Source: Thermoanaerobaculia bacterium (GTDB taxonomy: Bacteria; Acidobacteriota; Thermoanaerobaculia; UBA5066). Taken from it: a DNA stretch of 64,000 bases. This document shows, piece by piece, positions 4,092 through 56,706 of this stretch; within the stretch, counting starts at the first letter, position 1; every line of letters starts with the position of its first letter. Both the position numbers and the translations under genes were made by a program. Below the pieces are notes generated by a model, which did not search any database, had not been told where the DNA came from, and saw nothing but the letters and a program-made list of their open reading frames with translations. The stretch lies in the NCBI GenBank assembly GCA_963816185.1, contig CAWFJJ010000005.1:224001-288000 (forward strand). The letters are read 5' to 3'.

Positions 4092-5234
4092 CTACGTCCC
4101 CTTCTTGTACAGGTACGCCGACTCCAGCGTCCTGACGCCCTCGCTGTCGCCGACGACGTGTTTGCCGCCGCTCCAGATGGCGGCGCCGGCGGTTCTGCCC
4201 TTCGCGTCGACGGCGTAGTAGCTGACGTTGAACCTCGGGCGGCCTTTCTCGTCGCGGTGGTGGGGGACTTTGTGCGTCTTCTCGTCGATGCGCTTGAGGG
4301 CGAGGAGGCACGCCTCCTCGGGACTCTTCCCCTGCCGCATGAACTCGACGACCGTATGCGAGCCGCAGGTGACGAGGTTCGCCTCTCCGCGTCCCGTGGA
4401 TCCGCAGCTCCCGACGCCGTTCTCGCTGTAGATGCCCGCGCCGACCACGGCCGAGTCTCCGACGCGGCCCGGCATCTTGAAGTAAAGGCCGGACGTCGTC
4501 GTGACGCCCACGAGATCGCCTTTCGCGCTCCTCACGGACATGTGGATCGTGCCCTGCGGCCGGAAGTACTCGTTGCCGTTCTTCCGGATGAACTCCTTGA
4601 TGTCGGGATCCTCGGCTTCCTTGCCGGCCTCGATCCAGTCGTCCGCGTCCGAGAGGCGCTCTTTCCAGTAGAGCCAGATCTTCCGGCTCTTCGCCGTCAG
4701 GAGGTCCTCGACGGGGAAGCCGTGCGCCGTCGCGAACTTCCGTGCGCCCTCGCCGACGAGGAAGACGCGGTCGGTCCTGTCCATGACGAGCTTCGCGACC
4801 TTCGACGGCGTCTTGACGCCCTCGAGCGCGCCCACGGCGCCGGCCCGCATCGTGCGGCCGTCCATGACGCACGCGTCGAGCTGCACGACGCCTTCCTCGT
4901 TCGGGATGCCGCCGTACCCGACGCTCATGTCGTTCGGGTCCAGCTCGTTGATGTTCACGCCCACGATCGCGGCATCCAGCGGGTCGTAGCCCTGGATGAG
5001 CGCCTGCCGTGCGGCCTTCGCGGCCTCGACGCCGTTCGCGGACGTCACGAGGACGTAGGAAGAGGAGGATTCTGCTTCCCGAGCGGGCTGCTGCGCCGCA
5101 GCCGCACCGGTTGACGGTGGGGCCTGGCCACGCAGTCTTTCTTCGAAGGGGGAAGAGGGGAGAAGGCTCGCGGCGCCGGCCGCGGTGGCTGCGGTTGCGG
5201 CCGCCTTCAGGAAGCGGCGGCGGGAGGTGGACAT
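4092..5234 (-). CDS. Ntn-hydrolase of the glycosylasparaginase / isoaspartyl peptidase family, Tat-exported
   Basis: SRRRFLK twin-arginine signal; SVGYGGIPN, LDACVMDG, GT cleavage site, TTSG, PGRVGDS, TGRGE. Confidence 0.9.
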   Translation of the reverse strand: MSTSRRRFLKAAATAATAAGAASLLPSSPFEERLRGQAPPSTGAAAAQQPAREAESSSSYVLVTSANGVEAAKAARQALIQGYDPLDAAIVGVNINELDPNDMSVGYGGIPNEEGVVQLDACVMDGRTMRAGAVGALEGVKTPSKVAKLVMDRTDRVFLVGEGARKFATAHGFPVEDLLTAKSRKIWLYWKERLSDADDWIEAGKEAEDPDIKEFIRKNGNEYFRPQGTIHMSVRSAKGDLVGVTTTSGLYFKMPGRVGDSAVVGAGIYSENGVGSCGSTGRGEANLVTCGSHTVVEFMRQGKSPEEACLLALKRIDEKTHKVPHHRDEKGRPRFNVSYYAVDAKGRTAGAAIWSGGKHVVGDSEGVRTLESAYLYKKGT

Positions 5235-5352
5235 CGGCAGCTGCCTTTCTCGGCGCGTTTCGACCGCGCCGTTGCGAAAGCGTCATTCACCTTCTAAGTA
5301 GATCTTCTTTTCTCCTGGCTCACCGAGACGGCGACAGGAGACGACGCTGGCG

Positions 5353-5763
5353 TCACTCCTCCGGCAGCTCGGCTTCTTCCTCTTCCGCCCGCACGCCGCC
5401 CGGGAGCGCGTACTTCATCACGATGTCGCCGAGGTGCTGCGAGAAGGCCGAGCGGGGCAGAACCTGGTCGCAGCCCGCCTTCTCGCCCTTCTCGAGAAGA
5501 TCCTTCCTCACGTGCTCGTAGTAGCCCACGACGGCGATGCCTCTCGTCTTCGGGTTCTTCTTCAGGGCCGCGATCGCGGTGAAGGGGTCGTCGCGGAGCG
5601 CGAGGTCGACGATGACGAGGCCCACGCGCCCGGATTCGGCCTTGGCCGCGAGCTGAGCGGATTTTTCGATGAAGATGCCGTTCGCCTGCGCGGATTTCAG
5701 CGTGTGGTCGATCTTGGTCTTCCAGAACAAATCGTCCGCCAGGACGAGGACCGTGGGGTTCAT
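5353..5763 (-). CDS. Single receiver-domain (CheY-like) protein
   Basis: MNPTVLVLADDLF...LVIVDL...AGCDQVLPRS; atypical receiver fold. Confidence 0.7.
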   Translation of the reverse strand: MNPTVLVLADDLFWKTKIDHTLKSAQANGIFIEKSAQLAAKAESGRVGLVIVDLALRDDPFTAIAALKKNPKTRGIAVVGYYEHVRKDLLEKGEKAGCDQVLPRSAFSQHLGDIVMKYALPGGVRAEEEEAELPEE

Positions 5764-5930
5764 GGAATGCCTCCTCGGGCGACAGCTCGAACCTGTGATT
5801 CGGCATGGGCTTGCGATGGATCGAGCAGGGACAGTATAGGCCCGTCGCGGGCCGGTCACAGGTTCGACAAGTCGCCTCGGGGGATGTCAGACTCCCCGCC
5901 AGTTTTTCGAGGGACCAGGAGGACACACGG

Positions 5931-7960
<2,030 letters not shown>

Positions 7961-7999
7961 GGTCCCTCGTTTCCGGTCATCGGGGCGCGGGTCGTCAGG

Positions 8000-8329
8000 G
8001 TGAATTTTCTTAGAGTGGAAGAGGGAAGAAGAGAACGGGCGAAGCGCCTGCGGCTGGCATCGGCGATCGTCGGCACGCTGGTTTTCCTGGCTCTTTACTT
8101 CGTAGACCCGGCCACATCGTCCTTTGCGCCGCCGTGTCTCTTCACGGCGCTCTTCGGAGTCCGCTGCCCCGGCTGCGGCAGCCTGCGCGCGCTGCACGCG
8201 CTCGCTCATGGCGACCTGAAAGCGGCGCTCGCCTTCAATGCGCCCCTCGCTTATGTCCTGCCGCTCGCAGGCGCTTTCCTCCTTTATTCCCTTCTAAGAA
8301 GATCTTCTTCTTCCGGCTCTTCTCTTTAG
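8000..8329 (+). CDS. DUF2752-like small membrane protein
   Basis: PPCLF...CPGCGSLRALHALAHGD...FNA motif with two hydrophobic helices. Confidence 0.75.
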   Translation: MNFLRVEEGRRERAKRLRLASAIVGTLVFLALYFVDPATSSFAPPCLFTALFGVRCPGCGSLRALHALAHGDLKAALAFNAPLAYVLPLAGAFLLYSLLRRSSSSGSSL

Positions 8330-8518
8330 CTTCCTTTCTCCGCCTGATCTGAGCCGGGGACGCACGCCTCGCCGCTTTCGTTCAGGTGTCCCTTTTCGGC
8401 GGCACGAAAGCGTGCAGGGATGTGTGGCATCACGGGTTTTCCAGTGTTTTTCCGGGCCTGTCGATTGCACTGTAGAGGATGTCCCCGAAAGAAACCGGGG
8501 CAGAAAGAGAGGCCGATC

Positions 8519-8974
8519 ATGAAGACCCTGATGCGTACCTTGACGCTGTCCGCCGCGGCCCTCGCGGCCCTGGTGGCGGCCCCGAAGTCCGATGCCCAGC
8601 AATTCCGACACGGCGGGGCGCGCGAAACGTTCCGTGGAAACTCCGGTCACGGCGGAAGCTTCCGCGGAGGCGACTTCCGTGGACGCGAATTCCGCGGGCA
8701 CGAGTTCCGTGGAGGCGACTTCCGAGGTCGCGAATTCCGAGGATACGGCTGGCACAACCGGGGATTCGTTCGCCCGCCGGCCTTCTTCTACGGCCACCGC
8801 TACGTCTCTCCGTTCCGCGTCTTCGCCGGCAGCCGCTTCTACTCGTACTGCCCGGGTCCCGGCTACATCTACGTCGACGACCTCGGCTGGGTCTTCCCGC
8901 CCTTCCTCGGCGCCGTCTGGGTTCCCGCGCACATCAACGGGTTCGGCGTCCGGGTCCGCGGCTTCTGGCGTTGA
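8519..8974 (+). CDS. Secreted Gly/Arg/Phe-rich hypothetical protein
   Basis: AGAGG RBS, signal peptide MKTLMRTLTLSAAALAALVA, FRGxx repeats, C-terminal WVPAH...VRGFWR. Confidence 0.75.
   Translation: MKTLMRTLTLSAAALAALVAAPKSDAQQFRHGGARETFRGNSGHGGSFRGGDFRGREFRGHEFRGGDFRGREFRGYGWHNRGFVRPPAFFYGHRYVSPFRVFAGSRFYSYCPGPGYIYVDDLGWVFPPFLGAVWVPAHINGFGVRVRGFWR
8660..8743 (+). repeat. Six tandem 15-nt units encoding FRG(GD/RE/HE)
   Basis: TTCCGnGG at 8660, 8675, 8690, 8705, 8720, 8735. Confidence 0.9.
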
Positions 8975-8997
8975 GTCTGCTTCCCTCGGACCGCACG

Positions 8998-9025
8998 GAG
9001 CGCCGCCTCGAGAGGGGCGGCGCTC
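8998..9025. terminator. Hairpin between convergent genes, probable bidirectional terminator
   Basis: GAGCGCCGCCTC-GAGA-GGGGCGGCGCTC stem followed by TCGTCTTT. Confidence 0.65.
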
Positions 9026-9038
9026 TCGTCTTTGATGC

Positions 9039-10112
9039 TCAGGCGCCGCTCTCGCGCGCGAGAAGATCGCGCTTGCGCCGGATCCCCCACCGATAGCCGC
9101 CCAGCCCGCCGTCCCCCCGGACGACTCGATGGCACGGCACGACGAGCGCCGCGGGGTTCCTGGCGCAGGCCGAGGCGACCGCACGCACGGCGGACGGACG
9201 TCCGATCGTCGCGGCGATCTCGCCATAGGAACGCGTCTCGCCACGCGGAATCGTGCGCAGCGCCTCGAAGACGCGCCGCTGAAAGGTCGTGGCGCGCAGG
9301 TCGAGCGGGATACCGGAGAGATCGACGTCGCCGCCGAGCGAGCGCACGATGAGCTCCGTCCAATCGCCGAGCGCCCCGGGAGCCGGCTCGAGGAGGGCTT
9401 CGGGATATTCGCGCCGAAGAGCTTCCGCGAGCTCCCGGTCGGAATTCCCGAGCGTGACGGCGCAGACGCCTCGATCCGTCGCGGCGACGAGGAGCCGGCC
9501 GAGCGGCGTGGGAACGCTTCTGTACCGGATGTGGAGGCCGCGCCCTCCGCGCTGATAACGTCCCGGCGTCATGCCGAGATGCCGGGGTGCCTGGGCGTAC
9601 GTGCGGCTGCTCGACCCGTACCCGGCCTCGAAGCTGGCGGAGGCGACGCTCGTCCCATCCCTCAGCAGCGCCTTGAGCCGGTCGGCGCGCTGTGCGTCCG
9701 CGTAGCGCTTCGGTGTGACACCGACGAGCTTCTTGAAGACGCGTTGGAGATGGAACGGCGACAGCCCTGCGGCGCGGGAAAGAACCCGGAGCGGCACCGG
9801 AACGTCACCGTGCGATTCGAGGAACGCAATGGCGCGGCGTACGGCGCGGACGGCCGAGGCCGGCTCGGCGCTTTGCGGGCGGCACCGGAGACAGGCACGG
9901 TAGCCGGCGGCCTCGGCTCCGCCGGGGTCCGCGAAGAAGGTCACGTTCTCGCGCTTCGGCCGGCGGGCCGCGCAGGACGGGCGGCAGTAGACGCCCGTCG
10001 TCGAGACCGCGAAGACGAAGAGACCGTCGGAGGCGGCGTCGCGCGCGAGAACCGCGTTCCAGGCGCGGGCGGGATCTGGAGGAGGGGGCGAGGACATCGC
10101 GGTGATCATCAT
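9039..10112 (-). CDS. ada: Bifunctional transcriptional activator / O6-methylguanine-DNA methyltransferase Ada
   Basis: TGVYCRPSC and ACLRC Zn site, AraC HTH (SPFHLQRVFK), active site PCHRVV; true start may be at 10097. Confidence 0.95.
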   Translation of the reverse strand: MMITAMSSPPPPDPARAWNAVLARDAASDGLFVFAVSTTGVYCRPSCAARRPKRENVTFFADPGGAEAAGYRACLRCRPQSAEPASAVRAVRRAIAFLESHGDVPVPLRVLSRAAGLSPFHLQRVFKKLVGVTPKRYADAQRADRLKALLRDGTSVASASFEAGYGSSSRTYAQAPRHLGMTPGRYQRGGRGLHIRYRSVPTPLGRLLVAATDRGVCAVTLGNSDRELAEALRREYPEALLEPAPGALGDWTELIVRSLGGDVDLSGIPLDLRATTFQRRVFEALRTIPRGETRSYGEIAATIGRPSAVRAVASACARNPAALVVPCHRVVRGDGGLGGYRWGIRRKRDLLARESGA

Positions 10113-10175
10113 GCCGGGAAGATGGGGCGGTGCGCGCCTCCTCTCTCCCCGGATCTTGCGGTCAAACTCGCGAGG

Positions 10176-10871
10176 TCACGAGCGCTTGAAAAGGGGCAAG
10201 AGCGTCGGTTCGAGGCGACGGTACAGGGCGGCCGTCGCCTCGACGTCTCCCCGGCAGTAGTCGGCGATCTCCCGGATGCGACCCTGCCGGTAAAGGTCGC
10301 CCACGGCATAGCCATGCATCTCTTCGCTTTTCGGAGAGGGGATCCCGAACGCGACGCAGGCGGCGTGGAGGTGGGCTGCTGGTCCCGTGCGACGGCGCCT
10401 TGGAAACTGAGCATTCCATGCAGATCGACGTGCGTCTCGATCGAGTATCGATAGCCGAGAAGATTCTTAGAAGGTGAGAGACCGTGAATGGCGCTGCTCA
10501 CGGAGAGGAAAGGCCCGTCGAACGCGCGGCCGTTGAAGGAGACGAAGCGGTCGAACTTGAGAGCGTTCGCCCAAAACTCGCGAGAGCATCGTCGGCTCTT
10601 CGCACGCGACGAAGTCGAAGAGCCCGTCCTCGGCGAGGTGCGCCTCGCGCCGCCCGGTCGCCTCGTGCCAGACGAACCCGCGCCCGGTCTCCGGATTCGT
10701 CATGCCGATCACGATGACTTTCCCCGTATAAGGAGAGAGCGCTCCGCCCTCTTTCCTTCTCAGAAAATCTTCGTGATCTTCGGCCCGTCGCGTGAGCTTC
10801 TCGCGCTGCAGCGCATCCAGCTCGAGCCACGGAAACGACACCGTTTCGATGTCGAAGACGACCGTCTTCAC
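10176..10871 (-). CDS. PolB-related 3'-5' exonuclease (RNase H-like fold), two frameshifts (about 10580, 10375)
   Basis: VKTVVFDIET (ExoI), SFNGRAFD (ExoII), HVDL, IADYCRGDV (ExoIII) across three frames; stop TGA at 10176-10178. Confidence 0.8.
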
Positions 10872-10881
10872 GGGAGGGAGC

Positions 10882-11718
10882 TTACTTCGGGACAGTTGCC
10901 GGCGGCGTCGGCACTGCGGGCTGCGGCAGGACGACGCCGAGACGTTCGGCGAGCCAGGCGAAGGCAGCCTGCTTCGCTTCGGGATGCTCGCGGAAGACGG
11001 CGAGATCGTGTGCGCTGCCGGGGAAGAGAAGCATGCGTCGAGGCTCCTCGACGGAGGCCAGCAGGCGCCGCGCGGAGTCCGCGCGGCCGGGATCGTCCTC
11101 GCAGGCAAGGAGCAGCGCCGCGCGCGGCGTGACCTTCTTCCCGCCGGCGAGCGGAAGAACGCGCGGCTCGTTCACGGAAATCGCCACGGCGGCGTCCACG
11201 AGCCTCTCCGACGACGCGAGGAGCGCGAGATACCCGCCGACCGAGAGGCCGACCGCCGCGGTGCGCGGAGACTTCGTTCTCAACCAGGCGGCGGCGGCCT
11301 CCACGTCGCGCGGGAAGCCCGCCGGGTCCCTGAGGAGACTCGGGGAGATCTGGAGCGCCCGACCGGCCTTCTTCGTCGACTCGCCGTGAGCGCGCAGGTC
11401 GAAGGAAAGCGTCGCGAATCCCCGCTCGTGGAGCTCCTCGGCGAAGGGCTCCCATTCGCGCCGCTCGCGCGAGAAGTCGTGGATGAGGAGGACGCCCGGA
11501 GCTTTCGCGTTTCCCTCGACCGGGCGCCAGGACGACGCGAGCGCGACGCCGTCGGCCGTCCGGATCGTGACGCGGAAGGGGTCCACCGGGCGCGGCACCG
11601 GCGTGGGCTCGGGCGCCCTCCTCTTTCTTCTCTTCGCGTCTGCGGCTCCGCTCGAAAGGAGCGCGAGCACGGCGACCGCGGCGATCGCTCGCCGGTGGGC
11701 GGGCCGGAGACCGGTCAC
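10882..11718 (-). CDS. Secreted alpha/beta hydrolase
   Basis: Signal-like N-terminus, FDLRAHGES, nucleophile elbow GLSVGG, C-terminal His (GSAH); GTG overlaps the upstream stop. Confidence 0.8.
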   Translation of the reverse strand: MTGLRPAHRRAIAAVAVLALLSSGAADAKRRKRRAPEPTPVPRPVDPFRVTIRTADGVALASSWRPVEGNAKAPGVLLIHDFSRERREWEPFAEELHERGFATLSFDLRAHGESTKKAGRALQISPSLLRDPAGFPRDVEAAAAWLRTKSPRTAAVGLSVGGYLALLASSERLVDAAVAISVNEPRVLPLAGGKKVTPRAALLLACEDDPGRADSARRLLASVEEPRRMLLFPGSAHDLAVFREHPEAKQAAFAWLAERLGVVLPQPAVPTPPATVPK

Positions 11719-12740
11719 TTCGGCTTGAAGCCGCTGCCGAGCGCGAAGAGGACGTGGTCGTGGACGTAGTGCGTGAGAAGGAACGAGAGCACGACCGCGT
11801 AGTAGCTTGGCTCCGCCGGCAGGTGCAGGACGACGGTGAGGAGCAGGATCACGAGCGTGGCCCCGGTCGTCAGCAGGAGATTCCAGCCGTAGTAGCGGAA
11901 GAACTTCCCGGGCTGCGCCATCTTCCTCACGAACGTGGCTCCGGCGGCGGCATTGTCCTGCCGGAGGATGAGGTACGTGAGCCCGAGGTACTGGAACGAA
12001 TGCCACGCGTTGAAGCCCTGGAAGGAGATCGAGAGCTCCGGCAGGCGAGGGACGAGGAGGGCCACGACGACGGTGAGCGCCATGAAGAAGGCATACGGCG
12101 CCGCGAGCTCGCGGCGGCGGATCTGGTTCGCGGTGAAAACGATCCACGCGGCGATCAGTGCCGCCGTGAAGACGGCGAAGGAGTCGGCGAACCATGCGTG
12201 CTTCAGGAAGGCGGGGAACCAGAGAGTCGTCTCGCCGATGCGGAACGTGCCGGCGACGTGCCGGTACATCGCATAGCTGTAGAGCGACGTGATGACGACC
12301 GAGAAGTCGAGAAGGCGCTGCCATGGACGCGCGGCGCCACCCTTCTCACGATAGAGGTAACCGATGTACGAGGCCTGGTCGCACACGTGAATCGAGGCCC
12401 ACGTGAAGAAGAACGTGAGAAGCCACGGAAAGGCGTAGACGGTGCCGAGGATGACGCCGACCGGAACGATCACCACGGGCGCCCAGGTGAGCGCCGGGTG
12501 GATCTGCCGGAAGCGCGGCTCGAAGACCGTCTTCAGGAAGGTCGCGTACATGTGCGGGCCGCCGATGAGAAGCGTGATGAGGAGGTCCACGCCCCCCGCG
12601 GTCGTTTTTCCGAGCGAGTGAACGAGAAGCGGGACGGCCACGATGGCCGCCGACAACGTCAGGACGATGAGGTCCCAGCGCGGATTCGCGATCCACTGCG
12701 AGGGCTGGGAACGGGCCAGAGCCTGCGCTTCGGCGTTCAT
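11715..12740 (-). CDS. Multi-pass membrane protein with His motifs, unknown function
   Basis: About 9 hydrophobic segments; GPHMYAT, SIHVCDQ, AWHSFQY, THYVHDH. Confidence 0.75.
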   Translation of the reverse strand: MNAEAQALARSQPSQWIANPRWDLIVLTLSAAIVAVPLLVHSLGKTTAGGVDLLITLLIGGPHMYATFLKTVFEPRFRQIHPALTWAPVVIVPVGVILGTVYAFPWLLTFFFTWASIHVCDQASYIGYLYREKGGAARPWQRLLDFSVVITSLYSYAMYRHVAGTFRIGETTLWFPAFLKHAWFADSFAVFTAALIAAWIVFTANQIRRRELAAPYAFFMALTVVVALLVPRLPELSISFQGFNAWHSFQYLGLTYLILRQDNAAAGATFVRKMAQPGKFFRYYGWNLLLTTGATLVILLLTVVLHLPAEPSYYAVVLSFLLTHYVHDHVLFALGSGFKPK

Positions 12741-12828
12741 GGTGATCGCGGGCCGAGTGGCGCCGGGCCCGGCGGCGCGAGTGTAGCAAAGGGAAGAAAC
12801 GCCTCTGGACGGGCGTTAAGATCGATGC

Positions 12829-16675: not shown

Positions 16676-16682
16676 TCGACTC

Positions 16683-34973: not shown

Positions 34974-35060
34974 GAAGCGGCAAGATCATGCTGCGAAGGC
35001 GTCTGGCGACGTTAGCCCGCGCCGCCTCTGCGTACTCGGGAACGAGCTCAAAGCCCAGAG
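34966..35060 (-). pseudogene. C-terminal remnant of an N4/N6 DNA methyltransferase
   Basis: LGFELVPEYAEAARANV...* begins at the IS boundary; stop overlaps the endonuclease start. Confidence 0.7.
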
Positions 35061-35110
35061 TGAATCGCCCCGGCATTTCCGGAGGCTCCAACACTTGAGA
35101 GGATGGAGCC

Positions 35111-36342
<1,232 letters not shown>

Positions 36343-36372
36343 ACAGGTCTCCGGAGAACCCGGGGCGTTTCA

Positions 36373-46398: not shown

Positions 46399-46408
46399 AG
46401 GTAGAGCG

Positions 46409-46651: not shown

Positions 46652-46704
46652 CTTGGCGATCTTACGTTGGGCCGCCGCGCCTAGAATCGCGCGCCGGAGG
46701 ACTC

Positions 46705-47490: not shown

Positions 47491-47521
47491 GCTCCGGAAT
47501 ACACGACGGCTGCCGGCGGAC

Positions 47522-48238
47522 TTGAGAAACATCAGAGCCGTTTTCTTCGACGCGGGGCAGACGCTTCTCGAAGCGGATCCGCCGGTCGAGGCGGTCTATC
47601 GCGAGGCGTTCGCGACGCACGGGGTCGAGGCGGACCTCGAGGCGGTGCACCGCGCCGTGCACGCGACCTGGCGGGAGGTCGATGCGCGGCGCGAACGCGG
47701 CGAGGAACGCTGGGGCGGGCTGGAGGGCGAGGCCGGCTTCTGGCGGCGCTTCGTCGAGGAGGTCTTCGGCCGCTCGGGAGGGACAGGGCTTCCGGAGCCT
47801 CTTCTCGAGGGCCTCATCGCGCACTTCCGCCAGGACAAGCACTGGAAGGTGTACCCCGAGACGCGCGAGGTCCTCTCGGCGCTTCGCAGCGCGGGGATGA
47901 ATCTTCTCGTCGTCAGCAACTGGGACTCGACGCTTCCGGGCCTTCTCGAGCGGCTGGGCCTCCTGCCTTTCTTCGACGGCGTCGTCGTCTCCGCGGTTTT
48001 CGGGTCGTCGAAGCCTTCGCGTGCCATCTTCGACGAGGCCGTCCGGCTCGCGGGCGTCCCGCATGCGGAGGCGCTGCACGTGGGCGATTCGCTCATCGAC
48101 GACTACCGCGGCGCTCGCGCGGCGGGTCTTCACGCTCTGCTTCTCGACCGCGGAGGGCAACGCTGCCCTCCCGAGGTCGAGTCCATCGCGTCCCTGGCCG
48201 AGCTGCCCGCCCGGTTGGGCGGACACTTCACGGCTTAG
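47522..48238 (+). CDS. HAD-IA family hydrolase
   Basis: FFDAGQTL, VVSNWD, KPSRAIF, HVGDS...DD. Confidence 0.9.
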   Translation: MRNIRAVFFDAGQTLLEADPPVEAVYREAFATHGVEADLEAVHRAVHATWREVDARRERGEERWGGLEGEAGFWRRFVEEVFGRSGGTGLPEPLLEGLIAHFRQDKHWKVYPETREVLSALRSAGMNLLVVSNWDSTLPGLLERLGLLPFFDGVVVSAVFGSSKPSRAIFDEAVRLAGVPHAEALHVGDSLIDDYRGARAAGLHALLLDRGGQRCPPEVESIASLAELPARLGGHFTA

Positions 48239-48250
48239 ACTCCCCGGGAC

Positions 48251-49768
48251 ATGTCGTCGCTCTTCCGGCGCAAGCCGCTCGATGCCCTGATCGCCGAAGG
48301 AGGCGACGAAGTCCACGGTCTCAAGAAGACCCTCAACTGGGTCGACCTGATGGCCCTCGGCATCGGCGCGATCATCGGAGCCGGCATCTTCGCCACGCTC
48401 GGCAGCGCGACGTCCGGCGGCACGGGTGCCCCGCCCGCAGGCCCCGGCGTCACGGTCTCGATCTTCCTCACGGCCGTGGCCTGCGGCTTCTGCGCGCTGT
48501 GTTACGCGGAGTTCGCGAGCCTCGTGCCGGTCGCGGGCTCGGCCTACACGTACAGCTACGCGACGCTGGGTGAGCTCGTGGCGTGGATCATCGGGTGGGA
48601 CCTCATCATCGAGTACGCCGTCGGAAACATCGCCGTCGCGATCTCGTGGGCCGCGTACTTCCGCCAGCTCATGCTCGGCTTCGGGGTCCAGATCCCCGCG
48701 TGGATGGCGACGGACTACCGTTCGACGGTCCTCGCGGCAAAGTCCGCCGCCGAGTCCGGCGTGGCGAGCCTCGGCCCCGAATACGCGCTCGCCTACGAGG
48801 CGCACCTGCACCATCCCGTCCTCGCGGGAATCCCGGTCGTCTGCAATCTCCTGGCGGTCGTCATCACGGCTGCGATCACCTGGATCCTCGTCATCGGCGT
48901 CAAGGAGTCGGCGCGGTTCAACAACGTGATCGTCGTCCTGAAGCTCATGACGCTGCTGTTCTTCATCGTCGTGGGCGCGATGTGGGTCAAGCCCGCGAAC
49001 TGGCATCCGTTCTTCCCCGGCGGCCTCCATGGCGTGTGGACCGGAGCCTCCCTCATCTTCTTCGCGTACATCGGCTTCGACGCGATCTCGACCGCCGCCG
49101 AGGAATGTGAGAACCCCGGCCGCGACATGCCGCGTGGAATTCTCGGTTCGCTCGCGATCTGCACGATCCTCTACCTCGCGGCGGCCCTCGTTCTGACGGG
49201 CATGATCCCGTTCGCGAAGCTGGGGGGCGTCGCCGACCCGCTTGCGGCCGCTCTCACGTACGTCAACCAGGGGTGGGCCGCGGGCATCCTCGCGTTCGGC
49301 GCCGTGGTCGCGATGACGTCCGTCCTCCTCGTCTTCCAGCTCGGGCAGCCGCGCATCCTCATGGCGATGTCGCGCGACGGGCTCTTGGGTCCGTGGTTCG
49401 GGAAGATCCACCCGACGTACCGGACGCCGTACGTCACGACGATCCTGACGGGCATCTTCGTCGCGTTCTTCGCGGCCGTCGCGAACATCGACGAAGTCGT
49501 TCAGCTCACGAACATCGGGACGCTCTTCGCGTTCGTGCTCGTGTGCATCGGGATCCTCATCCTGCGCGTCCGCGAGCCCGAGCGGCCGCGGAAGTTCCGC
49601 GTCCCGTTCTCGCCCGTGACGCCCGTTCTCGGAATCGCGATGTGCCTCGTCCTGATGGCGGGCCTGCCGATTCTCACATGGATCCGCTTCGGCGTCTGGC
49701 TCGTGATCGGCCTCGCGCTCTACTTCCTTTACGGCTCGCGCCGCAGCCGGCTCGCGGTGAAGACCTGA
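48251..49768 (+). CDS. APC-family (cationic) amino acid permease
   Basis: GIGAIIGAGIF, CYAEFAS, AGSAYTY, FFAYIGFD, MSRDGLL, NIGTLFAF. Confidence 0.95.
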   Translation: MSSLFRRKPLDALIAEGGDEVHGLKKTLNWVDLMALGIGAIIGAGIFATLGSATSGGTGAPPAGPGVTVSIFLTAVACGFCALCYAEFASLVPVAGSAYTYSYATLGELVAWIIGWDLIIEYAVGNIAVAISWAAYFRQLMLGFGVQIPAWMATDYRSTVLAAKSAAESGVASLGPEYALAYEAHLHHPVLAGIPVVCNLLAVVITAAITWILVIGVKESARFNNVIVVLKLMTLLFFIVVGAMWVKPANWHPFFPGGLHGVWTGASLIFFAYIGFDAISTAAEECENPGRDMPRGILGSLAICTILYLAAALVLTGMIPFAKLGGVADPLAAALTYVNQGWAAGILAFGAVVAMTSVLLVFQLGQPRILMAMSRDGLLGPWFGKIHPTYRTPYVTTILTGIFVAFFAAVANIDEVVQLTNIGTLFAFVLVCIGILILRVREPERPRKFRVPFSPVTPVLGIAMCLVLMAGLPILTWIRFGVWLVIGLALYFLYGSRRSRLAVKT

Positions 49769-49780
49769 CCAGGAATCAGC

Positions 49781-50857
49781 TCAGCGGAAGGCGCCCAGGG
49801 CGCCCGTCCCCGCGTAGCCCGTCATCTCGACGTACGCGCGGCCGAGCGGCGTACGGGCGCCCGGCACGATCACGTCGCAAGCGCCTTCCCAGTACGTCAC
49901 GCGGGTGGACTTTTCCGTCACGAGCTCCTGGTCGGCGAGAACCGGAACGATCTCGACGCTGAGCGAAGCACGCGGCACGCGCAGCGTCCACCGCGACGGA
50001 TACGTCCCGCCGGAACCTGGGCTCTTCCAGTGCGCCGTCTCCTCGATTGAGAAGTCCTCCGAGGAGAGAGATTCAGCTCTTCCGTCCTTCGCCACGAGAG
50101 TCCCGGAAGAGAACGGCGAGGCGCTTCCGGCCTTTGCGCGCATCCGGTAAAGCATGAGATCGCGGCCGTCGAGAAGGTGCAGCCCGAACCAGTCCCAGCC
50201 CGCCGTGTCTCTTCCGATCGAGCCCGAGCCCCACTCGTGGTCGAACCATGAAAGGCCGGTCACGGCCTCGCTCTTCCCGCCGTTCGTCCACCAGCCCTCG
50301 GAGCGGAGGCGCGTGAAGCTCACGTAGCGGCTTACGGCGTCGCTTTCCGGTCCTTTGCGCGAAAGGCCACCCGCGCCGTGGACGACCGGCGGTTTTTCGG
50401 GCGTCAGGATGAGCGAGATCTCCTCGCCGCCGTCCGAGGCGAAAAGCACGAGCCGGTTTCCCACTTCCTCGAGGCGCCAGTCCTCGTTCGCGACGCAGAG
50501 CCGGTCCTCGCGCGCGAAGGCCGCTCCGACGCCGGTGCGGTGGATTCGCTCGGCGAACCGGAACGCCCCCGCCATGACGTCAGTCCGCGCGAAATGCGCG
50601 AGAAAGAGGTCGCGTGCGGCGAAGGCGGACGTTCGCGCGCTCTTCGGCTCGTCGGCAATGCCCGTGCGAAAGAAGGTGAGCTGGTAGCCGAGCCGCTTTC
50701 CGGAGGGCGTGTCGAGCTGGCCCGTGACGTACCACCACTCCACGCGCGCGTCGTCGTGCGACCCGTGATCGCGGGGAAACGAGAGATTTTGCTTCGGATC
50801 GAGACTCTTGAATCGGCCGGCGAGGAGGAAAAGCAGCGCGAGTGCGAGATTCTTCAT
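49781..50857 (-). CDS. AttH-like lipocalin / carotenoid 1,2-hydratase-family secreted protein
   Basis: FPRDHG, EWWY, YQLTFFR, WFDHEW, GWDWF, YWEG, YVEMTGY. Confidence 0.88.
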   Translation of the reverse strand: MKNLALALLFLLAGRFKSLDPKQNLSFPRDHGSHDDARVEWWYVTGQLDTPSGKRLGYQLTFFRTGIADEPKSARTSAFAARDLFLAHFARTDVMAGAFRFAERIHRTGVGAAFAREDRLCVANEDWRLEEVGNRLVLFASDGGEEISLILTPEKPPVVHGAGGLSRKGPESDAVSRYVSFTRLRSEGWWTNGGKSEAVTGLSWFDHEWGSGSIGRDTAGWDWFGLHLLDGRDLMLYRMRAKAGSASPFSSGTLVAKDGRAESLSSEDFSIEETAHWKSPGSGGTYPSRWTLRVPRASLSVEIVPVLADQELVTEKSTRVTYWEGACDVIVPGARTPLGRAYVEMTGYAGTGALGAFR

Positions 50858-53649
50858 CACTCTTCCTTCAGCGCGGCCGCGACGTCCGTCGCAGCCGCAA
50901 GGCTGGCCGGCCGCGAGGCAGCCGCGAGCGTCGCGAGAAGGACGAGGGCGAGCGCCGCCGCGAGGAAGCCCCACGGCGTGTGCATCGCGATCGTCCAGCC
51001 GAATGACTGGCGGTTGATGACGTGGACGAGGACGAGCGACATCGCGCCTCCCGCGAGCGCCCCGAGGCCGGCCCCGAGACCGCCGATCGCGGCCGCCTCG
51101 TAGCGGACGGCTCTCTTCACCCGGGCTGCCGAGGCCCCGAGGACGCGCAGAAGGCCGATCTCGCGCCGCCTTTCGAGGACGAGCGCGGTCAGCGTGTTGA
51201 AGACGCCGAGCACGGCCACGGCGAGCGCCACGACCTCGAGCGCGTACGTGACGGCGAACGTCCGATCGAAGATCCTGAGGACGATCTTTCGGAGCGTCGC
51301 GTTCGTCCGCACCCGGAGCGCGAACCGTCCGCGCAAGGCCGCCGCCACGCGGCGTGCCCCTTCCTCGGGCGAGACTCCGTCCTTCAGCGTCACGGCGACG
51401 GACGAAGCGCCGGTGAGCGGCCAGAGCCTCTGAAAATGTGCGCGGTCGAGCGTCACCGTGCCGCGATCGTTCGAGTAATCCGTGTAGACCGCGGCAACGC
51501 GCACCCGGACGGGCCCGCGGTCGGTCGGGAGCTCCACGAAATCGCCCGGCTTCACGTGGAATTTCTCGCCGAACGGCTCCGAGATCATGGCCTCGTCCTT
51601 TCCGAGGGCGTCCGTGAAGACCTTCCTCGTGTCGCGCCCGTCCACGAGCGGCAGGTTCCCGTGCTTCGCGATGAACGCGAAGAGGCCCGATCCCACGGTG
51701 AACGGCACTCCATCTCGCGTGGCGGGGAAGGCGAGGAACGGGTCGACGTCGTCCACGCCCGGCACCGCGCGCACGAGGTCGATCGCTTCGTCCGGGATCC
51801 GGCCGAAGGACGGGCCGGACCTTCCGCTCGCCGGCGACAGGAAGAGATCCGAGGCGAGCGTCTGGCCGATCCACGTCGCGACCGTCGTGCGGAAGGAGCC
51901 GACCATGACGGCGACCGAAACCATCATCGCGAGAGCCATCGTGAGCGCGGCCACGGCCACCGATGTGCGCGAGAGGCTGCCGGTCAGGTTCGCGCGAGCG
52001 AGGCGCGCCTCGACGCCCAAGAGGCGCAGCGCAAACCGGTCGAGGCGCGTGGCCGCGAAAGTCACGGCCGCGGGAGCGAGCAGGGAGACGCCCGAAGCGA
52101 TCAGGAAGACCGAGAGGAATCCGAAGAGAGGGAGGCCGTTGACGGGCCCGGACCGCGTCGCGACGAATGCGAGGACGAGCAGGGCCGTGCCCGCGAGAGC
52201 GAGAGGACGTGTCCTTCGACGGCGCACGGCCTCGACCGAGCCGTGACGCATCGTCGCGGCGGGCTCGACGCGCGCGGCCTCGAGGGCGGGGGCGAGAGCC
52301 GACAGGATGGACGAGACGACGCCGACGGAGAACGCGAGGAGCAGCACGCGAGGGTCGAGGTGGAGCACCGGATGCGCCGAGGGAAGGTAGAGCTCGGTCG
52401 CGGTGCCGCCCACGAGGAGGAGCGCGCCCTCCGCAAGCGCGACGCCGAGGGCCACGCCGGCCGCGCTTCCGAGGACGCCGAGCACGAGCCCCTCGGCGAG
52501 GAAGACGGCGAACACGGACCGCTTCGACGCCCCGAGCGCGCGGACGGTGCCGATGTCCGTGCGACGCCGCAAGACCGAGATGGACAGTGTGTTGTAGACG
52601 AAATACATCCCGACGAGGAGGGCGATCAGGCCGAGGGCGGAGAGGTTCACGCGAAACGCGCGGACCAGATGCTCGACGGTCTGCGTGCGCCGCTCCGGGC
52701 GCCCGGCCGTCGTGCCCGGGGGCAGCGACGCGCGGATCTCCTCCTCGAAACGCGCGCGGCCGTCTTCCGGAAGGCCGGGCGGCAGAACGACGTCGATGCG
52801 GTCGAGGCGGCCGACCTTCCCGAATGCCTCCTGCGCGACCGCGAGGTCCATGAACACGATCGAGCCGGAGGCCGCACGCGCGGCGCCAAGGGGCCGAAGC
52901 ACGGCGGCGACGCGGAACGTGCGCTCCACGCCGTTCGTGACGAGGTGCAGCGAACTCCCGGTGTGAAGAGAATTTCTTTCTGCGAATACAGAGGTGACCA
53001 GGATCGAATTCTTTTCGAAGACGGATAAGAGGTTTGCTTCGGACCCGTTCGCGTCGTGTTTTGCGTCGGCTCCGGGTGAAGGCGTTTCGCTCGCTTCGCT
53101 CGCGTGCTTAGAAGGGGAAATTTCCTCGGGGCGCGCCGAACCAATGCCGCTTTGCCCGGCCGTCCCCGCGCGCTCCTGACCCTTATTACCTTCTAAGAAA
53201 ATCGTAGGCTGCGTTTCACGAGCCCCACTGTAGTTCGCGCGTTCCGGCGAACCGTCCTGCGAGGGAGCAAATCCGTATTCTCTTGCTGCCGCGTCCGCGA
53301 GCGGGTCGATGCCGAGCACCTCGACGACCTCGCCGTCCGCAGCGCCCGCCGCGGCCGTTTCGGTGATCGCGGGCGCGAGCGTCGCCCCCTCGCGACGGAG
53401 CCAGGCGAGGCGCTCCAGCGCGGCCTCGGGAATGCCCGGGCCGTCCGCGAGCACCGTGATCCCGGCCTTTCCGGCGACGAGGTCCACGGTGTCGGAGAAA
53501 GACGAAAGGACCGAAGCGTTCGCGAGGCGGATCGCGGCGATCGTCGCGACGCCGACGGCGATGCCCGAGACCGTGAGGAGGAAGCGAAGCCGGTCCCTCG
53601 CGGCCGGCCGGAGGACGAGCGGGCCGATCAGCGAAAAGAAACCGATCAT
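50857..53649 (-). CDS. FtsX/MacB-like ABC transporter permease (AttF/G-like) with an in-frame low-complexity insertion
   Basis: Two MacB-periplasmic plus FtsX halves (RRRTDIGTVRALGA; ERRREIGLLRVLGA), INRQSFGW. Confidence 0.9.
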   Translation of the reverse strand: MIGFFSLIGPLVLRPAARDRLRFLLTVSGIAVGVATIAAIRLANASVLSSFSDTVDLVAGKAGITVLADGPGIPEAALERLAWLRREGATLAPAITETAAAGAADGEVVEVLGIDPLADAAAREYGFAPSQDGSPERANYSGARETQPTIFLEGNKGQERAGTAGQSGIGSARPEEISPSKHASEASETPSPGADAKHDANGSEANLLSVFEKNSILVTSVFAERNSLHTGSSLHLVTNGVERTFRVAAVLRPLGAARAASGSIVFMDLAVAQEAFGKVGRLDRIDVVLPPGLPEDGRARFEEEIRASLPPGTTAGRPERRTQTVEHLVRAFRVNLSALGLIALLVGMYFVYNTLSISVLRRRTDIGTVRALGASKRSVFAVFLAEGLVLGVLGSAAGVALGVALAEGALLLVGGTATELYLPSAHPVLHLDPRVLLLAFSVGVVSSILSALAPALEAARVEPAATMRHGSVEAVRRRRTRPLALAGTALLVLAFVATRSGPVNGLPLFGFLSVFLIASGVSLLAPAAVTFAATRLDRFALRLLGVEARLARANLTGSLSRTSVAVAALTMALAMMVSVAVMVGSFRTTVATWIGQTLASDLFLSPASGRSGPSFGRIPDEAIDLVRAVPGVDDVDPFLAFPATRDGVPFTVGSGLFAFIAKHGNLPLVDGRDTRKVFTDALGKDEAMISEPFGEKFHVKPGDFVELPTDRGPVRVRVAAVYTDYSNDRGTVTLDRAHFQRLWPLTGASSVAVTLKDGVSPEEGARRVAAALRGRFALRVRTNATLRKIVLRIFDRTFAVTYALEVVALAVAVLGVFNTLTALVLERRREIGLLRVLGASAARVKRAVRYEAAAIGGLGAGLGALAGGAMSLVLVHVINRQSFGWTIAMHTPWGFLAAALALVLLATLAAASRPASLAAATDVAAALKEE

Positions 53650-54326
53650 GGCTCGAGCCGTCCGTCACGCAGGTGGAGGATGCGCGAGGCGCGCGCCGCG
53701 GCTTCGGCCGAGTGCGTCGCCATGACGACGGTGATGCCGCGCTCCGTCACGAGGGCCGAGACGAGGGCGAGCACCTGCTCGCCCGTCTTCGAGTCGAGAT
53801 TGCCGGTCGGCTCGTCGGCGAGGAGGAGCGCGGGCCCGTTCGCGAGCGCACGCGCCACGGCGACGCGCTGCATCTGCCCGCCTGAAAGCTCGTACGGGTA
53901 AGAGCGCGCCTTGTCCGAGAGGCCGACGTCGGAAAGACCTCGCGCCGCGCGCGCATCCGCGTCGGCCGGGGAGACTCCGTCGAGGAGGAGCGGCAGCGCG
54001 ACGTTCTCGAGGGCCGTCATCGTGGGCAGGAGGTTGAAGAACTGGAATACCGTGGCCGCGGTTTTCCGTCGGTACGCGTCGCGTTCGTCCTCGGACAGCG
54101 TCGCGAGATCCTTCCCGTCCACGAGGACGCGGCCCGCCGTCGGGCGATCGAGACCGCCGAGGAGATTCAGGAGCGTCGACTTGCCGCAGCCCGAAGGTCC
54201 GAGGAGAGCGGTGAAGGTGCCGGGCTCGAGCGCGAGAGAGACGCCGAGGAGCGCGTCGACCCCGGCGGCCCCGTTTCCGCCGCCGTACGACTTCGTCACG
54301 GACTCGGCGATCACGCGGGCGCCCAT
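53646..54326 (-). CDS. ABC transporter ATP-binding protein (LolD/MacB-like)
   Basis: GPSGCGKST, LSGGQMQR, LLADEPTGNLD, ATH. Confidence 0.95.
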   Translation of the reverse strand: MGARVIAESVTKSYGGGNGAAGVDALLGVSLALEPGTFTALLGPSGCGKSTLLNLLGGLDRPTAGRVLVDGKDLATLSEDERDAYRRKTAATVFQFFNLLPTMTALENVALPLLLDGVSPADADARAARGLSDVGLSDKARSYPYELSGGQMQRVAVARALANGPALLLADEPTGNLDSKTGEQVLALVSALVTERGITVVMATHSAEAAARASRILHLRDGRLEP

Positions 54327-54370
54327 GAGCCTCATCCTACGTATGATGCCCGCGTCGGGATGGACGCCGC

Positions 54371-55180
54371 GTGCTGAAAAACCTCGCCGGCCTGTGGCGC
54401 CACCGCGCGCTCGCGTACGTCCTCGTCGCCCGCGAGCTGAAGGCCCGCTATCGCGGCAGCGTTCTGGGATTCTTCTGGTCGCTCCTGAACCCCCTCCTGA
54501 TGCTCGCGGTCTACGCGATCGTCTTCGCCGTCATCTTCACGGGCCGCGGTCCCGAGACGTCGCCGTACGCGTTGTTCCTCTTCTCCGGTCTCCTGCCGTG
54601 GAACTGGCTCTCGTCGTCGCTGACGGACGCGGCGGCATCGCTGACGACGCACGGGGCGCTCCTCAAGAAGATCCTCTTCCCGGCCGAGGTGCTGCCGATC
54701 GTGGCGGTTCTCGCGCAAGGCCTCCACTTCGTCTTCGCCCTGCCTGTCCTTCTCGCCGGCCTCGTCCTCGGCGCTCTCGGCGTCTTCGGCCCGTCGATCC
54801 CCCTCGGATGGCCGCTCGTGCAGGCCCTCCCGCTCTTCGTTCTCGAAGGGATCTTCGTCGGAGGGGTCGGGCTGCTCCTCGCCGCTCTCACGGTCCATTT
54901 TCGCGACGTGAAGGATCTCCTCGCGACGGCGCTGTCGCTCTGGTTCTTCGCGACGCCCGTCCTGTACAGGCTCGACGACATCAAGCAGGAGCGCGTGCGC
55001 GCGCTCTTGCTCTTCAATCCGGCGGCACCCTTCTTCGATGGGTGGCACGACGCGCTTTTCTACGCACGGTGGATCGAGCCGTCCCGGTGGGGCCTCCTCC
55101 TCGCGATCGCGTGCGCGTCGTTTTTCCTCGGGTATGCGCTCTTCGACCGGCTGCGCGACTCGTATCCGGAGGCGGTGTGA
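54371..55180 (+). CDS. wzm: Polysaccharide ABC exporter permease
   Basis: RELKARYRGSVLGFFWSLLNPL, FRDVKD, FFATPVLY, NP. Confidence 0.9.
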   Translation: MLKNLAGLWRHRALAYVLVARELKARYRGSVLGFFWSLLNPLLMLAVYAIVFAVIFTGRGPETSPYALFLFSGLLPWNWLSSSLTDAAASLTTHGALLKKILFPAEVLPIVAVLAQGLHFVFALPVLLAGLVLGALGVFGPSIPLGWPLVQALPLFVLEGIFVGGVGLLLAALTVHFRDVKDLLATALSLWFFATPVLYRLDDIKQERVRALLLFNPAAPFFDGWHDALFYARWIEPSRWGLLLAIACASFFLGYALFDRLRDSYPEAV

Positions 55181-56706
55181 AGCCCGTCACGCCGGCCGTC
55201 ACGGCCGAAAGCCTTTCGAAGAGCTATCGAAAATGGGGGCGCACGCGCGCGTTCGGGACGCTCAAGTCGGCGCTTCTCGGGCGCTCGCTGGCGGCGGCGC
55301 TCGCCCCTTCCGAGGTCGTGGCCGCGCTCTCGGACGTGTCTTTCACGGTCGCACGCGGCGAGACCTTCGGCGTCGTGGGGCCGAACGGCTGCGGCAAGTC
55401 CACGCTCCTGAAGCTCGTCGCCGGCCTCTTCAAGCCCACCTCGGGGCGGATCGCCGTCGATGGGAAGGTCTCGGCGCTCATCGAGCTCGGCGCGGGCTTC
55501 CACCCGGAGATCTCGGGACGCGAGAACGTCGTCATCAACGGCGTCATGCTCGGGCTCTCGCGCAAGGAGATCGAGCGGAAGCTGCCCGAGATCATCGCGT
55601 TCTCGGGCCTCGAAGGCTTCATCGACGAGCCCGTGAAGACGTACTCGTCGGGCATGTACGTGCGCCTCGGCTTCGCGGTGGCCGTGCACGTGGACCCGGA
55701 CATCCTCGTCGTGGACGAGGTCCTCGCCGTGGGCGACGAGGCCTTCGCGCACCGCTGTCTCGACACGATCGCGGAGTTCTCGCGGCGCGGCAAGACGATT
55801 TTCTTCGTCTCGCACTCGCTCGTCCTCGTCGAGGATCTGTGCGACCGCGTGCTTTACCTCGAGGGCGGCCGGATCAAGGCGCTCGGCGATCCCAGAGAGA
55901 CGCTCGCGAAATACCGCATGAACGTCGCGGCGGGGGAGGGCGCACGTCTCTCGACGGAGCATCGGAAGGATCAGGAGATTCTGCTTCGGACAAGAGAAGA
56001 GAAGATTTTCTCAAAAGGGGAAGAGGGGGCGGCGGCGGGCGGCGAGACGGCGCTGCGCGCCGGGGAAACTGCTGCACGCGGGGATTCGGCGCATTTCTTA
56101 GAAGGGGCAAAAGGCTCAGGGGCTACCGGTGCCGGATCGGCTGTCGAGCGGGCTGACTCTCATACCCCCTTCAAAGAAAATCCACCCTTGCCCGAAGCGT
56201 CTCGAAAGCAGGAAACACAACAGAGCGTGGAGTCACCTCTGGAACAGAAGAATCCTCTTCGCCGATGGGGCAACCGGGACGTGTCGATCACGGGCTGCCG
56301 CTTGCTCGACGCCTCCGGCGCCGAGCGCTACGCGTTTCGCTCGGGGGAGTCGCTGACGGTCGAGATCTCCGTGGCGCCGCGGGCCTCCACCGCCGATTTC
56401 GTCTTCGGGATCGGGATCTTCACGCTCGAGGACGTGTGTGTGCACGGCAGCAACACGGAGACCGACGGCTTCCTGCCGGAACGCCTCGACGGCCCGGCGA
56501 CGGTGCGCGTGACGCTGCCGCGCCTCGACCTCGGGACCGGGACGTATCTCCTGGACGTGGCGGTCCACTCCCGCCGCGAGACGCCTTACGACTACTGGCG
56601 CGGCGCGTGCCGCTTCCAGGTGGATTCGCCCGATCGCGACGCGGGCCTCTATCGCCCGGAACGCCTCTGGACGTTCGCGGGCGCCGTCTCGGTGAGCGCG
56701 CGGTGA
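55177..56706 (+). CDS. wzt: Polysaccharide ABC exporter ATPase with Wzt_C domain and a long linker insertion
   Basis: GPNGCGKST, GAGFHPE, YSSGM..RLGF, VDEVLAVGD; C-terminal carbohydrate-binding domain. Confidence 0.92.
   Translation: MKPVTPAVTAESLSKSYRKWGRTRAFGTLKSALLGRSLAAALAPSEVVAALSDVSFTVARGETFGVVGPNGCGKSTLLKLVAGLFKPTSGRIAVDGKVSALIELGAGFHPEISGRENVVINGVMLGLSRKEIERKLPEIIAFSGLEGFIDEPVKTYSSGMYVRLGFAVAVHVDPDILVVDEVLAVGDEAFAHRCLDTIAEFSRRGKTIFFVSHSLVLVEDLCDRVLYLEGGRIKALGDPRETLAKYRMNVAAGEGARLSTEHRKDQEILLRTREEKIFSKGEEGAAAGGETALRAGETAARGDSAHFLEGAKGSGATGAGSAVERADSHTPFKENPPLPEASRKQETQQSVESPLEQKNPLRRWGNRDVSITGCRLLDASGAERYAFRSGESLTVEISVAPRASTADFVFGIGIFTLEDVCVHGSNTETDGFLPERLDGPATVRVTLPRLDLGTGTYLLDVAVHSRRETPYDYWRGACRFQVDSPDRDAGLYRPERLWTFAGAVSVSAR

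Follow-up and report, generated by a model that had tools for sequence, protein, structure and literature searches.

The window analysed here is a 64 kb stretch of a Thermoanaerobaculia genome (G000:C5:224001-288000), in which a short polar sequence, called the arm below, recurs as inverted pairs inside and beside protein-coding genes. The assembly that contains it, G000, has 5.09 Mb in 30 contigs with 67% G+C, a completeness of 94.9% and an estimated contamination of 3.4%. The first-pass annotation of the window had reported a 9-mer, CCTTCTAAG, or its complement at six places, with several close variants, and had grouped the copies in five clusters, each an inward-facing pair. The exact copies lie at 5290(+), 8290(+), 10466(-), 53107(-), 53189(+) and 56097(-), and their coordinates were right. 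The variants at 10754, 56001 and 56167 are 19-mer matches with 2-3 mismatches, those at 5138-5149 (TTTCTTCGAAGG) and 8006-8017 (TTTCTTAGAGTG) were recognised by eye in the sequence, and all five clusters do face inward. The arms found in the window are the following.

5130..5165, minus strand: arm variant, plus-strand letters TTTCTTCGAAGGGGGAAGAGGGG, in frame in the signal-peptide region of an asparaginase gene (4092-5234, minus strand), reading ...PSSPFEER...
5289..5320, plus strand: arm CCTTCTAAGTAGATCTTC and its pyrimidine tail, intergenic, with the asparaginase start codon (5234) on one side and the upstream gene's stop codon (5353) on the other
7995..8040, minus strand: arm variant TTTCTTAGAGTGGAAGAGGGAAGAAGAG, at the 5' end of a small DUF2752 open reading frame (ORF; 8000-8329)
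8280..8335, plus strand: consensus arm CCCTTCTAAGAAGATCTTC with a TTC-rich tail, encoding the C-terminus of the DUF2752 ORF, ...SLLRRSSSSGSSL, up to its stop
10455..10480, minus strand: arm, plus-strand letters AGATTCTTAGAAGGTGAGAG, encoding LSPSKNLL; the host ORF, on the minus strand, weakly matches PolB-type 3'-5' exonucleases
10745..10775, plus strand: arm variant CCTTCTCAGAAAATCTTC, 292 bp from the 10455 arm with which it pairs
53100..53125, minus strand: arm, plus-strand letters GCTTAGAAGGGGAAA, encoding ...ISPSKH... in a MacB/FtsX-type permease ORF (50857-53649, minus strand)
53180..53206, plus strand: arm TTACCTTCTAAGAAAATCG, encoding ...IFLEGNKG... in the permease ORF 50857-53649
55990..56026, minus strand: extra single arm AAGAGAAGAGAAGATTTTCTCAAAAGGGGAAGAGGG, a 36-nt in-frame segment of the Wzt linker
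56085..56115, minus strand: left arm of a canonical pair, CATTTCTTAGAAGGGGCAAAAGG, encoding HFLEGAKG in the linker between the ABC ATPase and Wzt_C domains
56160..56190, plus strand: right arm CCCCCTTCAAAGAAAATCC, reading TPFKEN, with TAA changed to AAA in the frame where TAA is a stop

At the asparaginase locus (Asparaginase_2 match), the arm at 5130 pairs with that at 5289, as its inner partner. One arm pair brackets the DUF2752 ORF, and the interior of the 10455/10745 pair is coding-like DNA conserved in five genomes. The gene around the latter pair had been called an exonuclease, a name that can be kept only tentatively, the PF10108 match (E=0.0016, 18.6 bits) lying under the 24-bit cut-off and the frame being broken in the assembly. 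The permease pair has a spacing of 85 bp and its ORF is open and in frame through both arms, while the canonical pair of the Wzt-type protein (ABC_tran + Wzt_C) has a spacing of 74 bp and shares its linker with the extra arm, making three arms in all. The use of rare codons by the in-gene copies, also pointed out in the first-pass annotation, agrees with the codon usage, in which TTA and CTA account for 0.2% and 0.6% of Leu, AGA for 2.6% of Arg, TCT for 5.2% of Ser and CCT for 7.7% of Pro.

The arm is a unit of about 25-36 bp. The alignment of 242 copies gave the consensus CCCTCTTCA-CCTTCTAAGAAA-TCTTCTTCTTCC. Read on the opposite strand, it exhibits a GAAGAG-rich outer tail, followed by AGA-TTTCTTAGAAGG and by an inner TGAATGGGG, TGAAGAGGG or GTGAGTGGGG, and its core, TTCT-A-AGAA, is a 9-bp palindrome. 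The purine-rich patches noticed around the window copies correspond to these outer tails, GAAGAG-like on one strand. The 9-mer is strongly enriched, with 6 copies in the window for 0.09 expected by chance, a count that none of 100 dinucleotide-preserving shuffles of the window reached, and with 242 copies in the genome, where Markov models of order 0, 2 and 4 predict 10-15; the enrichment is genome-wide, contrary to the outcome that the first-pass annotation had named as refuting. For the 12-mer CCTTCTAAGAAA, G000 contains 149 exact copies (Markov expectation 0.07-0.2), almost equally shared between the strands (76 and 73), and 265 copies at one mismatch, whereas the counts for seven scrambled 12-mers used as controls were 0-2 exact and 6-30 at one mismatch.

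The bias in pairing and orientation first seen in the window holds genome-wide and through the genus. In the set of 414 arms found in G000 at one mismatch or fewer, adjacent arms less than 1 kb apart face inward, with their G-rich ends inside, in 102 cases and outward in 10. An inward partner, called at up to 3 mismatches unless stated otherwise, was found for 335 of the 414 arms (81%); as a control, a match of the same kind on the outer side was present for 25 of 220 solo arms. The start-to-start distance of adjacent arms showed a sharp mode at 73-76 bp. This mode of about 75 bp belongs to the intergenic class, with 31 of 62 intergenic pairs spaced by 66-84 bp; the spacing of the intragenic pairs is diffuse (5/35 within 66-84 bp, median 135 bp) and without bias modulo 3 (13, 14 and 8). 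The element is bounded by terminal inverted repeats, as a miniature inverted-repeat transposable element (MITE) is.

Elements are over-dispersed along the G000 contigs (variance-to-mean ratio 1.9), and the density on large contigs varies 7-fold, from 0.21 per 10 kb on the 467-kb C29 to 1.48 on C28. In arm density, contigs C29, C18 and C6 and the small contigs C2-C4 and C9-C11 stand out, and many small contigs carry none. This unevenness could come from contamination of the bin (estimated above at 3.4%), from plasmids or islands, or from real regional differences.

Gene context was counted with a retrained gene caller, whose counts are approximate in such a GC-rich genome. It placed 35 of 97 pairs inside called genes and 62 in intergenic spacers, of which 43 are tandem, 12 convergent and 7 divergent. 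The intergenic pairs lie about 20-40 bp past the upstream stop codon and about 115 bp ahead of the next start codon, and in 7 cases the TAG of the arm serves as the stop codon of the gene. No association with promoters or divergent spacers was seen among the 97 pairs. The polarity relative to gene direction could be classified for just 11 polar elements in G000, too few to conclude.

Of the 414 arms, 202 fall in called genes, and all six frames are represented. In the frames where the arm would bring a stop codon, the stop has been lost in every copy, 21/21 sense and 16/16 antisense (37/37), mainly by a single T-to-G change at position 6; in-gene copies in the remaining four frames are exact about half of the time. 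The ORF remains stop-free and in frame across 20 of the 45 pairs with same-strand coding flanks. The in-frame hosts include Wzt, the MacB-type permease, an MFS transporter, a PlsC-type acyltransferase and the asparaginase, and the recurring peptides FLEGEE, PSKKS, LLRK and PFEE are those that the arms encode. The MFS transporter, elsewhere in G000, carries its pair in the central loop. The PlsC-type acyltransferase has two pairs, one of which encloses the FPEG block, a conserved stretch; 4 species retain both PlsC arms.

The motif in this form is restricted to a single Thermoanaerobaculia genus, represented here by 29 genomes (G000 and 28 others). The exact pair pattern occurs in 23 of the 24 other genus genomes surveyed for it and in none of the 16 genomes compared from two further families of its order, among which the unpublished G025 and G030 enter as counts. 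The exact 12-mer is present at 45-149 copies per genome in all 11 genus genomes sampled, at 0 in 6 genomes of sister genera of the same family and at no more than 2 in 134 other genomes of the class. When the exact pair was sought in 185,579 species genomes, 101 stretches matched, and the best 80 of these 101 loci were all from Thermoanaerobaculia or Acidobacteriota metagenome-assembled genomes. Viral contigs contained 0 exact pairs.

Within the genus, arms and pairs are gained and lost. At the asparaginase locus, compared in five species (G000, G003, G011, G008 and G004), the coding-region arm is present in 5/5 and the upstream arm in 2/5, besides G000 only in G004, being missing from G003, G011 and G008. 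In the Wzt linker, aligned for 11 loci (G000 and 10 relatives), two species have the right arm alone and the others the pair, and the extra 36-nt arm is found in G000 alone. At G000:C1:680503, the pair forms an insertion of 126 bp that separates two convergent stop codons; among the other 28 genus genomes, about 20-24 have just a gap of about 17-60 nt at this site and G019 has no match, while G006 has two arms paired around an unrelated interior and G012 a different repeat. G007 has a nested extra arm, and a deleted remnant of it survives in G000.

The rate of change was measured by comparing 800 kb of G003 with G000, two genomes whose identity at 4-fold sites is 0.736. Counting an arm as kept when it has at most 2 mismatches to the consensus, 40 of the 67 G000 arms with syntenic flanks in G003 were kept, 17 were decayed and 10 absent; in the reverse direction, G003 to G000, 38 of 46 were kept. 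Identity fell from 0.82-0.83 in the core to 0.70-0.74 in the next 9 nt and to 0.62-0.63, with many gaps, in the interior. Because the G000 arms were picked as near-consensus, about 0.85 is expected neutrally on the G003 branch alone, and the core identity is therefore not proof of purifying selection. From one species to another, arms decay at a roughly neutral rate, and the sole hint of constraint is the gradient running from core to interior.

The interiors have 73% G+C, resemble the genome in their dinucleotide biases (TA odds ratio 0.37) and lack codon periodicity. They fold at the level of shuffled sequences (mean z 0.02, 111 elements). The whole elements reach minimum free energies of -42 to -68 kcal/mol in 14 examples, and arms with tails can form stems of 12-25 bp; in 170 pairs, however, 276 arm changes are one-sided and 8 compensated. 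Rfam searched over the window at gathering thresholds returned just two ALIL pseudoknots of IS3 elements. A base-pairing role is unlikely, since the arm changes are uncompensated, the interior is unstructured and Rfam gave no match. The idea that the interiors are captured or templated DNA was tried and set aside, no match being found elsewhere in the genome or in the local flanks; one interior 27-mer had no exact match in metagenome contigs.

G000 also contains a second dispersed repeat family. It is GC-rich, about 100-150 nt long, with hairpin-like parts and matches at at least 20 other places of the genome. It is nested in three long arm pairs (G000:C24:129878-130207, C30:539966-540184 and C28:439662-439909), and in G012 (L142) it fills the convergent spacer where G000 carries an arm pair.

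Two explanations had been offered at first, a site for a looping protein and the ends of a decayed palindromic element. We lean to the second because of the clean empty sites, the position just past stop codons, the removal of in-frame stops, the near-neutral decay and the restriction to one genus; the arms may well be the conserved ends of a genus-specific selfish repeat family, like repetitive extragenic palindromic (REP) doublets forming hairpins (REPINs), MITEs or Rickettsia palindromic elements (RPEs), an account that we hold tentatively, as somewhat short of probable. Arm pairs would then behave as short, non-autonomous mobile DNA proper to the genus, deposited as inward pairs whose cores are canonically about 87 bp apart, or at times as a single arm of about 36 bp. 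We infer that an enzyme would recognise the arm as double-stranded sequence and insert it, and that, where one arm is present, a second would preferentially be put facing it, with DNA looping fixing the distance between them; such placement would explain interiors that are unrelated and sometimes native. Copies would survive where harm is small, that is just past stops, in convergent or tandem spacers and in translated loops or linkers of proteins, the in-gene ones with their own TAA or TAG removed through one substitution, usually T to G.

Several observations weigh against a selfish repeat family. The 97 interiors lack mutual similarity, except for one segmental duplication and the nested second repeat in three long pairs, and they match neither the rest of G000 nor their local flanks, the lineage-specific insertion included; for 33 canonical interiors the column entropy was 1.57 against 1.61-1.73 in shuffled sets, a marginal residual similarity. 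Ordinary MITE or REPIN copies inherit their interior, whereas these arm pairs share none. Intragenic pairs enclose native conserved sequence, such as the FPEG block of the PlsC-type acyltransferase, and against orthologues of another family (G029, G027) the PlsC arms appear as replaced patches (+5 and -3 residues) and not as one insertion. The unrelated interiors and the pairs around native coding sequence are also what the first-pass notion of decayed element ends leaves unaccounted for. Solo arms are no more decayed than paired ones, being exact in a fraction of 0.33 without a partner and 0.39 with a partner at one mismatch or fewer. A target-site duplication is not visible at C1:680503, the sole clean filled/empty site examined. 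The Y1_Tnp profile (PF01797) has 0 matches in G000 and occurs in 4 of the 29 genus genomes, in none of which the gene is flanked by arms. A cognate transposase was not found with this profile or in the IS3 copy of the window, whose ends (TGAATCGCCCCGG...) differ from the arm, no systematic search for insertion sequences (IS) with the same ends having been made; and 11 arm-bounded intervals of 330-4000 bp, checked for a mobiliser gene, held ordinary genes only.

The likeness to known systems is partial in each case. In Pseudomonas fluorescens SBW25, REPINs are REP doublets that form hairpins, are mobilised by REP-associated tyrosine transposases (RAYTs), and have preferred spacings of 71 and 110 bp with a spacer less conserved than the ends (PMC3116915). 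The arms share with them the inverted doublets, a preferred spacing (about 75 bp here), the less conserved spacer, the minority of singlets, the hundreds of copies and the vertical inheritance within a lineage (PMC3116915). They differ in that no RAYT is associated, interiors are wholly unrelated and do not extend the hairpin, half of the arms are in genes, singlets are not more decayed, unlike those of REPINs, and the arm is not a GTAG- or CGTC-tagged palindrome. RPEs, of about 100-150 bp, are found in frame in unrelated housekeeping genes, to which they add a peptide segment (PMC10969869). Arms too are repeatedly in frame within unrelated protein genes; RPE copies, however, share their full sequence and a conserved peptide (PMC10969869), whereas here just the two ends are common, native coding sequence lies within some pairs and the majority of copies are intergenic. 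MITEs of the Correia and ERIC kinds have terminal inverted repeats, about 100-150 bp and polymorphic positions in gene-proximal 3' or 5' spacers, and the terminal inverted repeats, the size, the gene-proximal spacers and the polymorphism between relatives are found here as well (PMC10969869). Unlike MITEs, the arm pairs have no internal sequence in common, and they show no target-site duplication at the one site and no cognate IS, for which only the IS3 of the window was considered.

The unrelated interiors, the native blocks between arms and the lack of any mobilising enzyme found keep two other readings alive. One, possible although we doubt it, is that pairs are docking sites for a host DNA-binding factor, such as a roadblock, looping or nucleoid protein, which would bind two inverted sites separated by some 7 helical turns; that such sites were created and kept by selection or a conversion-like drive, not by transposition, is equally doubtful. 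It is the option of a looping-protein site proposed at first, and we keep it because the interiors are unrelated and pairs bracket native coding sequence. It is consistent with arms conserved as sequence and not as a helix (8 compensated against 276 one-sided changes), with interiors free of excess structure, with the palindromic core and the sharp intergenic mode, with the PlsC-type pairs kept in 4 species, and with a conservation that declines inward from 0.82 in the core. That core value is, however, close to neutral one-branch decay, given the 4-fold identity of 0.736 over both branches, and 27 of 67 arms are decayed or absent in G003. The 75-bp spacing is lost in intragenic pairs, contig density ranges 7-fold and an association with promoters or divergent spacers is not seen. 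The analogies to matS, SlmA and Noc sites made in the first-pass annotation fit poorly a family of about 600 copies with turnover.

The other reading, which we consider unlikely, is that the written unit is the arm alone (25-36 bp), with no element body, and that a sequence-specific enzyme would insert arms into double-stranded DNA and set a second arm facing one already there, as far away as looping dictates. The distance between paired arms would be at least 45 bp with an optimum of about 75 bp, and the interior would be DNA already there or filler of a break. The unrelated interiors, the pairs round native coding blocks, the nested arm-arm-arm arrays and the 36-nt single-arm indels would all follow from it.

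That the arm is a DNA uptake signal, built up in coding and non-coding DNA by biased uptake and homologous recombination, seems improbable to us. Uptake signal sequences (USS) of Pasteurellaceae and DNA uptake sequences (DUS) of Neisseriaceae are lineage-specific words present in hundreds of copies on both strands and tolerated in coding frames; the copies are often inverted pairs after genes, act singly and are spread fairly evenly over the genome. Competent cells take up DNA carrying such a word in preference to other DNA; the lineage studied here is uncultured. The arm resembles them as a short lineage-specific word, restricted to a genus like a DUS dialect, with hundreds of copies equally on both strands, in coding frames with rare codons and with minimal changes where a stop would arise, and with no transposase associated. 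ComEC and DprA are present in G000, yet also in 10 and 11 of 14 control genomes, and do not discriminate. An uptake signal does not predict, however, that 81% of arms pair inward 45-330 bp apart with a 75-bp mode, nor whole two-arm insertions of 126 bp, clustering and uneven density; here, unlike in USS and DUS, copies are as a rule paired around some 50 nt of unrelated DNA, and whole pairs are gained or lost.

Less probable still is a hairpin of RNA or single-stranded DNA, whether it would stabilise 3' ends, terminate transcription, be cut by RNase III or serve as a folded recombination site like attC. A location just past stops and between convergent genes would suit it, stems of 12-25 bp are possible, and in other species the convergent spacer is occupied by a GC-rich hairpin or by a different hairpin repeat. 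The arm mismatches are uncompensated, though, and the loop of about 50 nt is no more structured than shuffles; the base of the stem is AT-rich, and the GC-rich stem and U tract of an intrinsic terminator are absent. Half of the arms are in genes, and no Rfam family was assigned to the elements of the window at gathering thresholds. Invertons, in which a recombinase flips the segment between inverted repeats, in genes too, would fit inverted repeats enclosing 45-330 bp, some in genes with open frames, but are very improbable with at least about 250 loci, one of them enclosing a conserved catalytic block, an intragenic spacing unbiased modulo 3, and no strand-changing or excision joint seen in four sequencing runs aligned over 8 kb, a weak test with Logan contigs, not reads, sharing at most 0.29 of the sampled words.

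Two further candidates were rejected. A promoter or Shine-Dalgarno reading was suggested by a likeness of the arm to AGGAGGTGA and to the 3' end of 16S rRNA, GGATCACCTCCTTTCTAAGG; it was dropped because arms follow stops and do not precede starts, occur in genes and are symmetric. As an observation in its own right, the complement of the arm agrees with the Shine-Dalgarno sequence AGGAGGTGA at 8 of 9 positions, with no functional link found, and the 16S rRNA 3' end in G000 (L122 3040-3065, G000:C1) reads GGATCACCTCCTTTCTAAGGGATC, to which the arm TCACCTTCTAAGAAATC is similar minus four letters. A small ORF running from the ATG of TGAATG to the TAA of the right arm was discarded because the spacing shows no preference for multiples of 3.

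Other features of the window stand beside the arms. The OPT oligopeptide transporter gene (5805-7960) is split over three frames, the breaks being close to 6279 and 6829, and an indel lies near 5799/5800; these breaks are probably assembly errors and not a pseudogene, because contigs of other runs differ there by 1-nt indels. The gene at 10113-10880 (minus strand), that of the weak PF10108 match, is frame-broken here, and a related contig has three 1-nt indels at 10560-10584. RNA-run contigs join 7960 to 8493 or 8498, skipping about 0.5 kb with the DUF2752 ORF and both its arms. This is no more than a hint that some strains lack the 7960-8498 segment, the sides of the joint being short (30-34 nt) and derived from a relative 90-95% alike. 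At 9039-10112 (minus strand) lies an ordinary fused Ada-type protein with an Ada zinc-binding domain, an AraC-type helix-turn-helix and an O6-methylguanine methyltransferase. The ALIL pseudoknot matches, frameshift signals of the IS3 family, are at 674-790 (minus strand) and 35389-35505 (plus strand). The IS3 copy at about 35060-36372 ends in TGAATCGCCCCGG... and ...CCGGGGCGTTTCA, with a loose likeness to the inner part of the arm, TGAATGGGGCC, that may be chance.

The first-pass annotation knew of no description of this motif, and a search of the literature on Thermoanaerobaculia and Acidobacteriota, supplementary material aside, yielded none; repeats of this design, paired arms with conserved ends alone, look undescribed. 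Whatever their origin, arms give many enzymes and transporters additional low-complexity peptides whose codons (TTA, AGA, CTA) are very rare, provide stop codons for some genes and offer a ready metagenome marker of the genus. If they are selfish DNA, they would be the second clear case, after the Rickettsia RPEs, of large-scale in-frame colonisation of protein genes, in a free-living GC-rich soil lineage and with just the ends conserved, which current models of MITE and REPIN replication fail to explain. If the arm alone is what is written, bacterial repeats would include a kind that spreads solely as ends. If, on the other hand, the pairs are read by a host factor, they would make up a new DNA-binding system with about 250-300 paired sites per genome.

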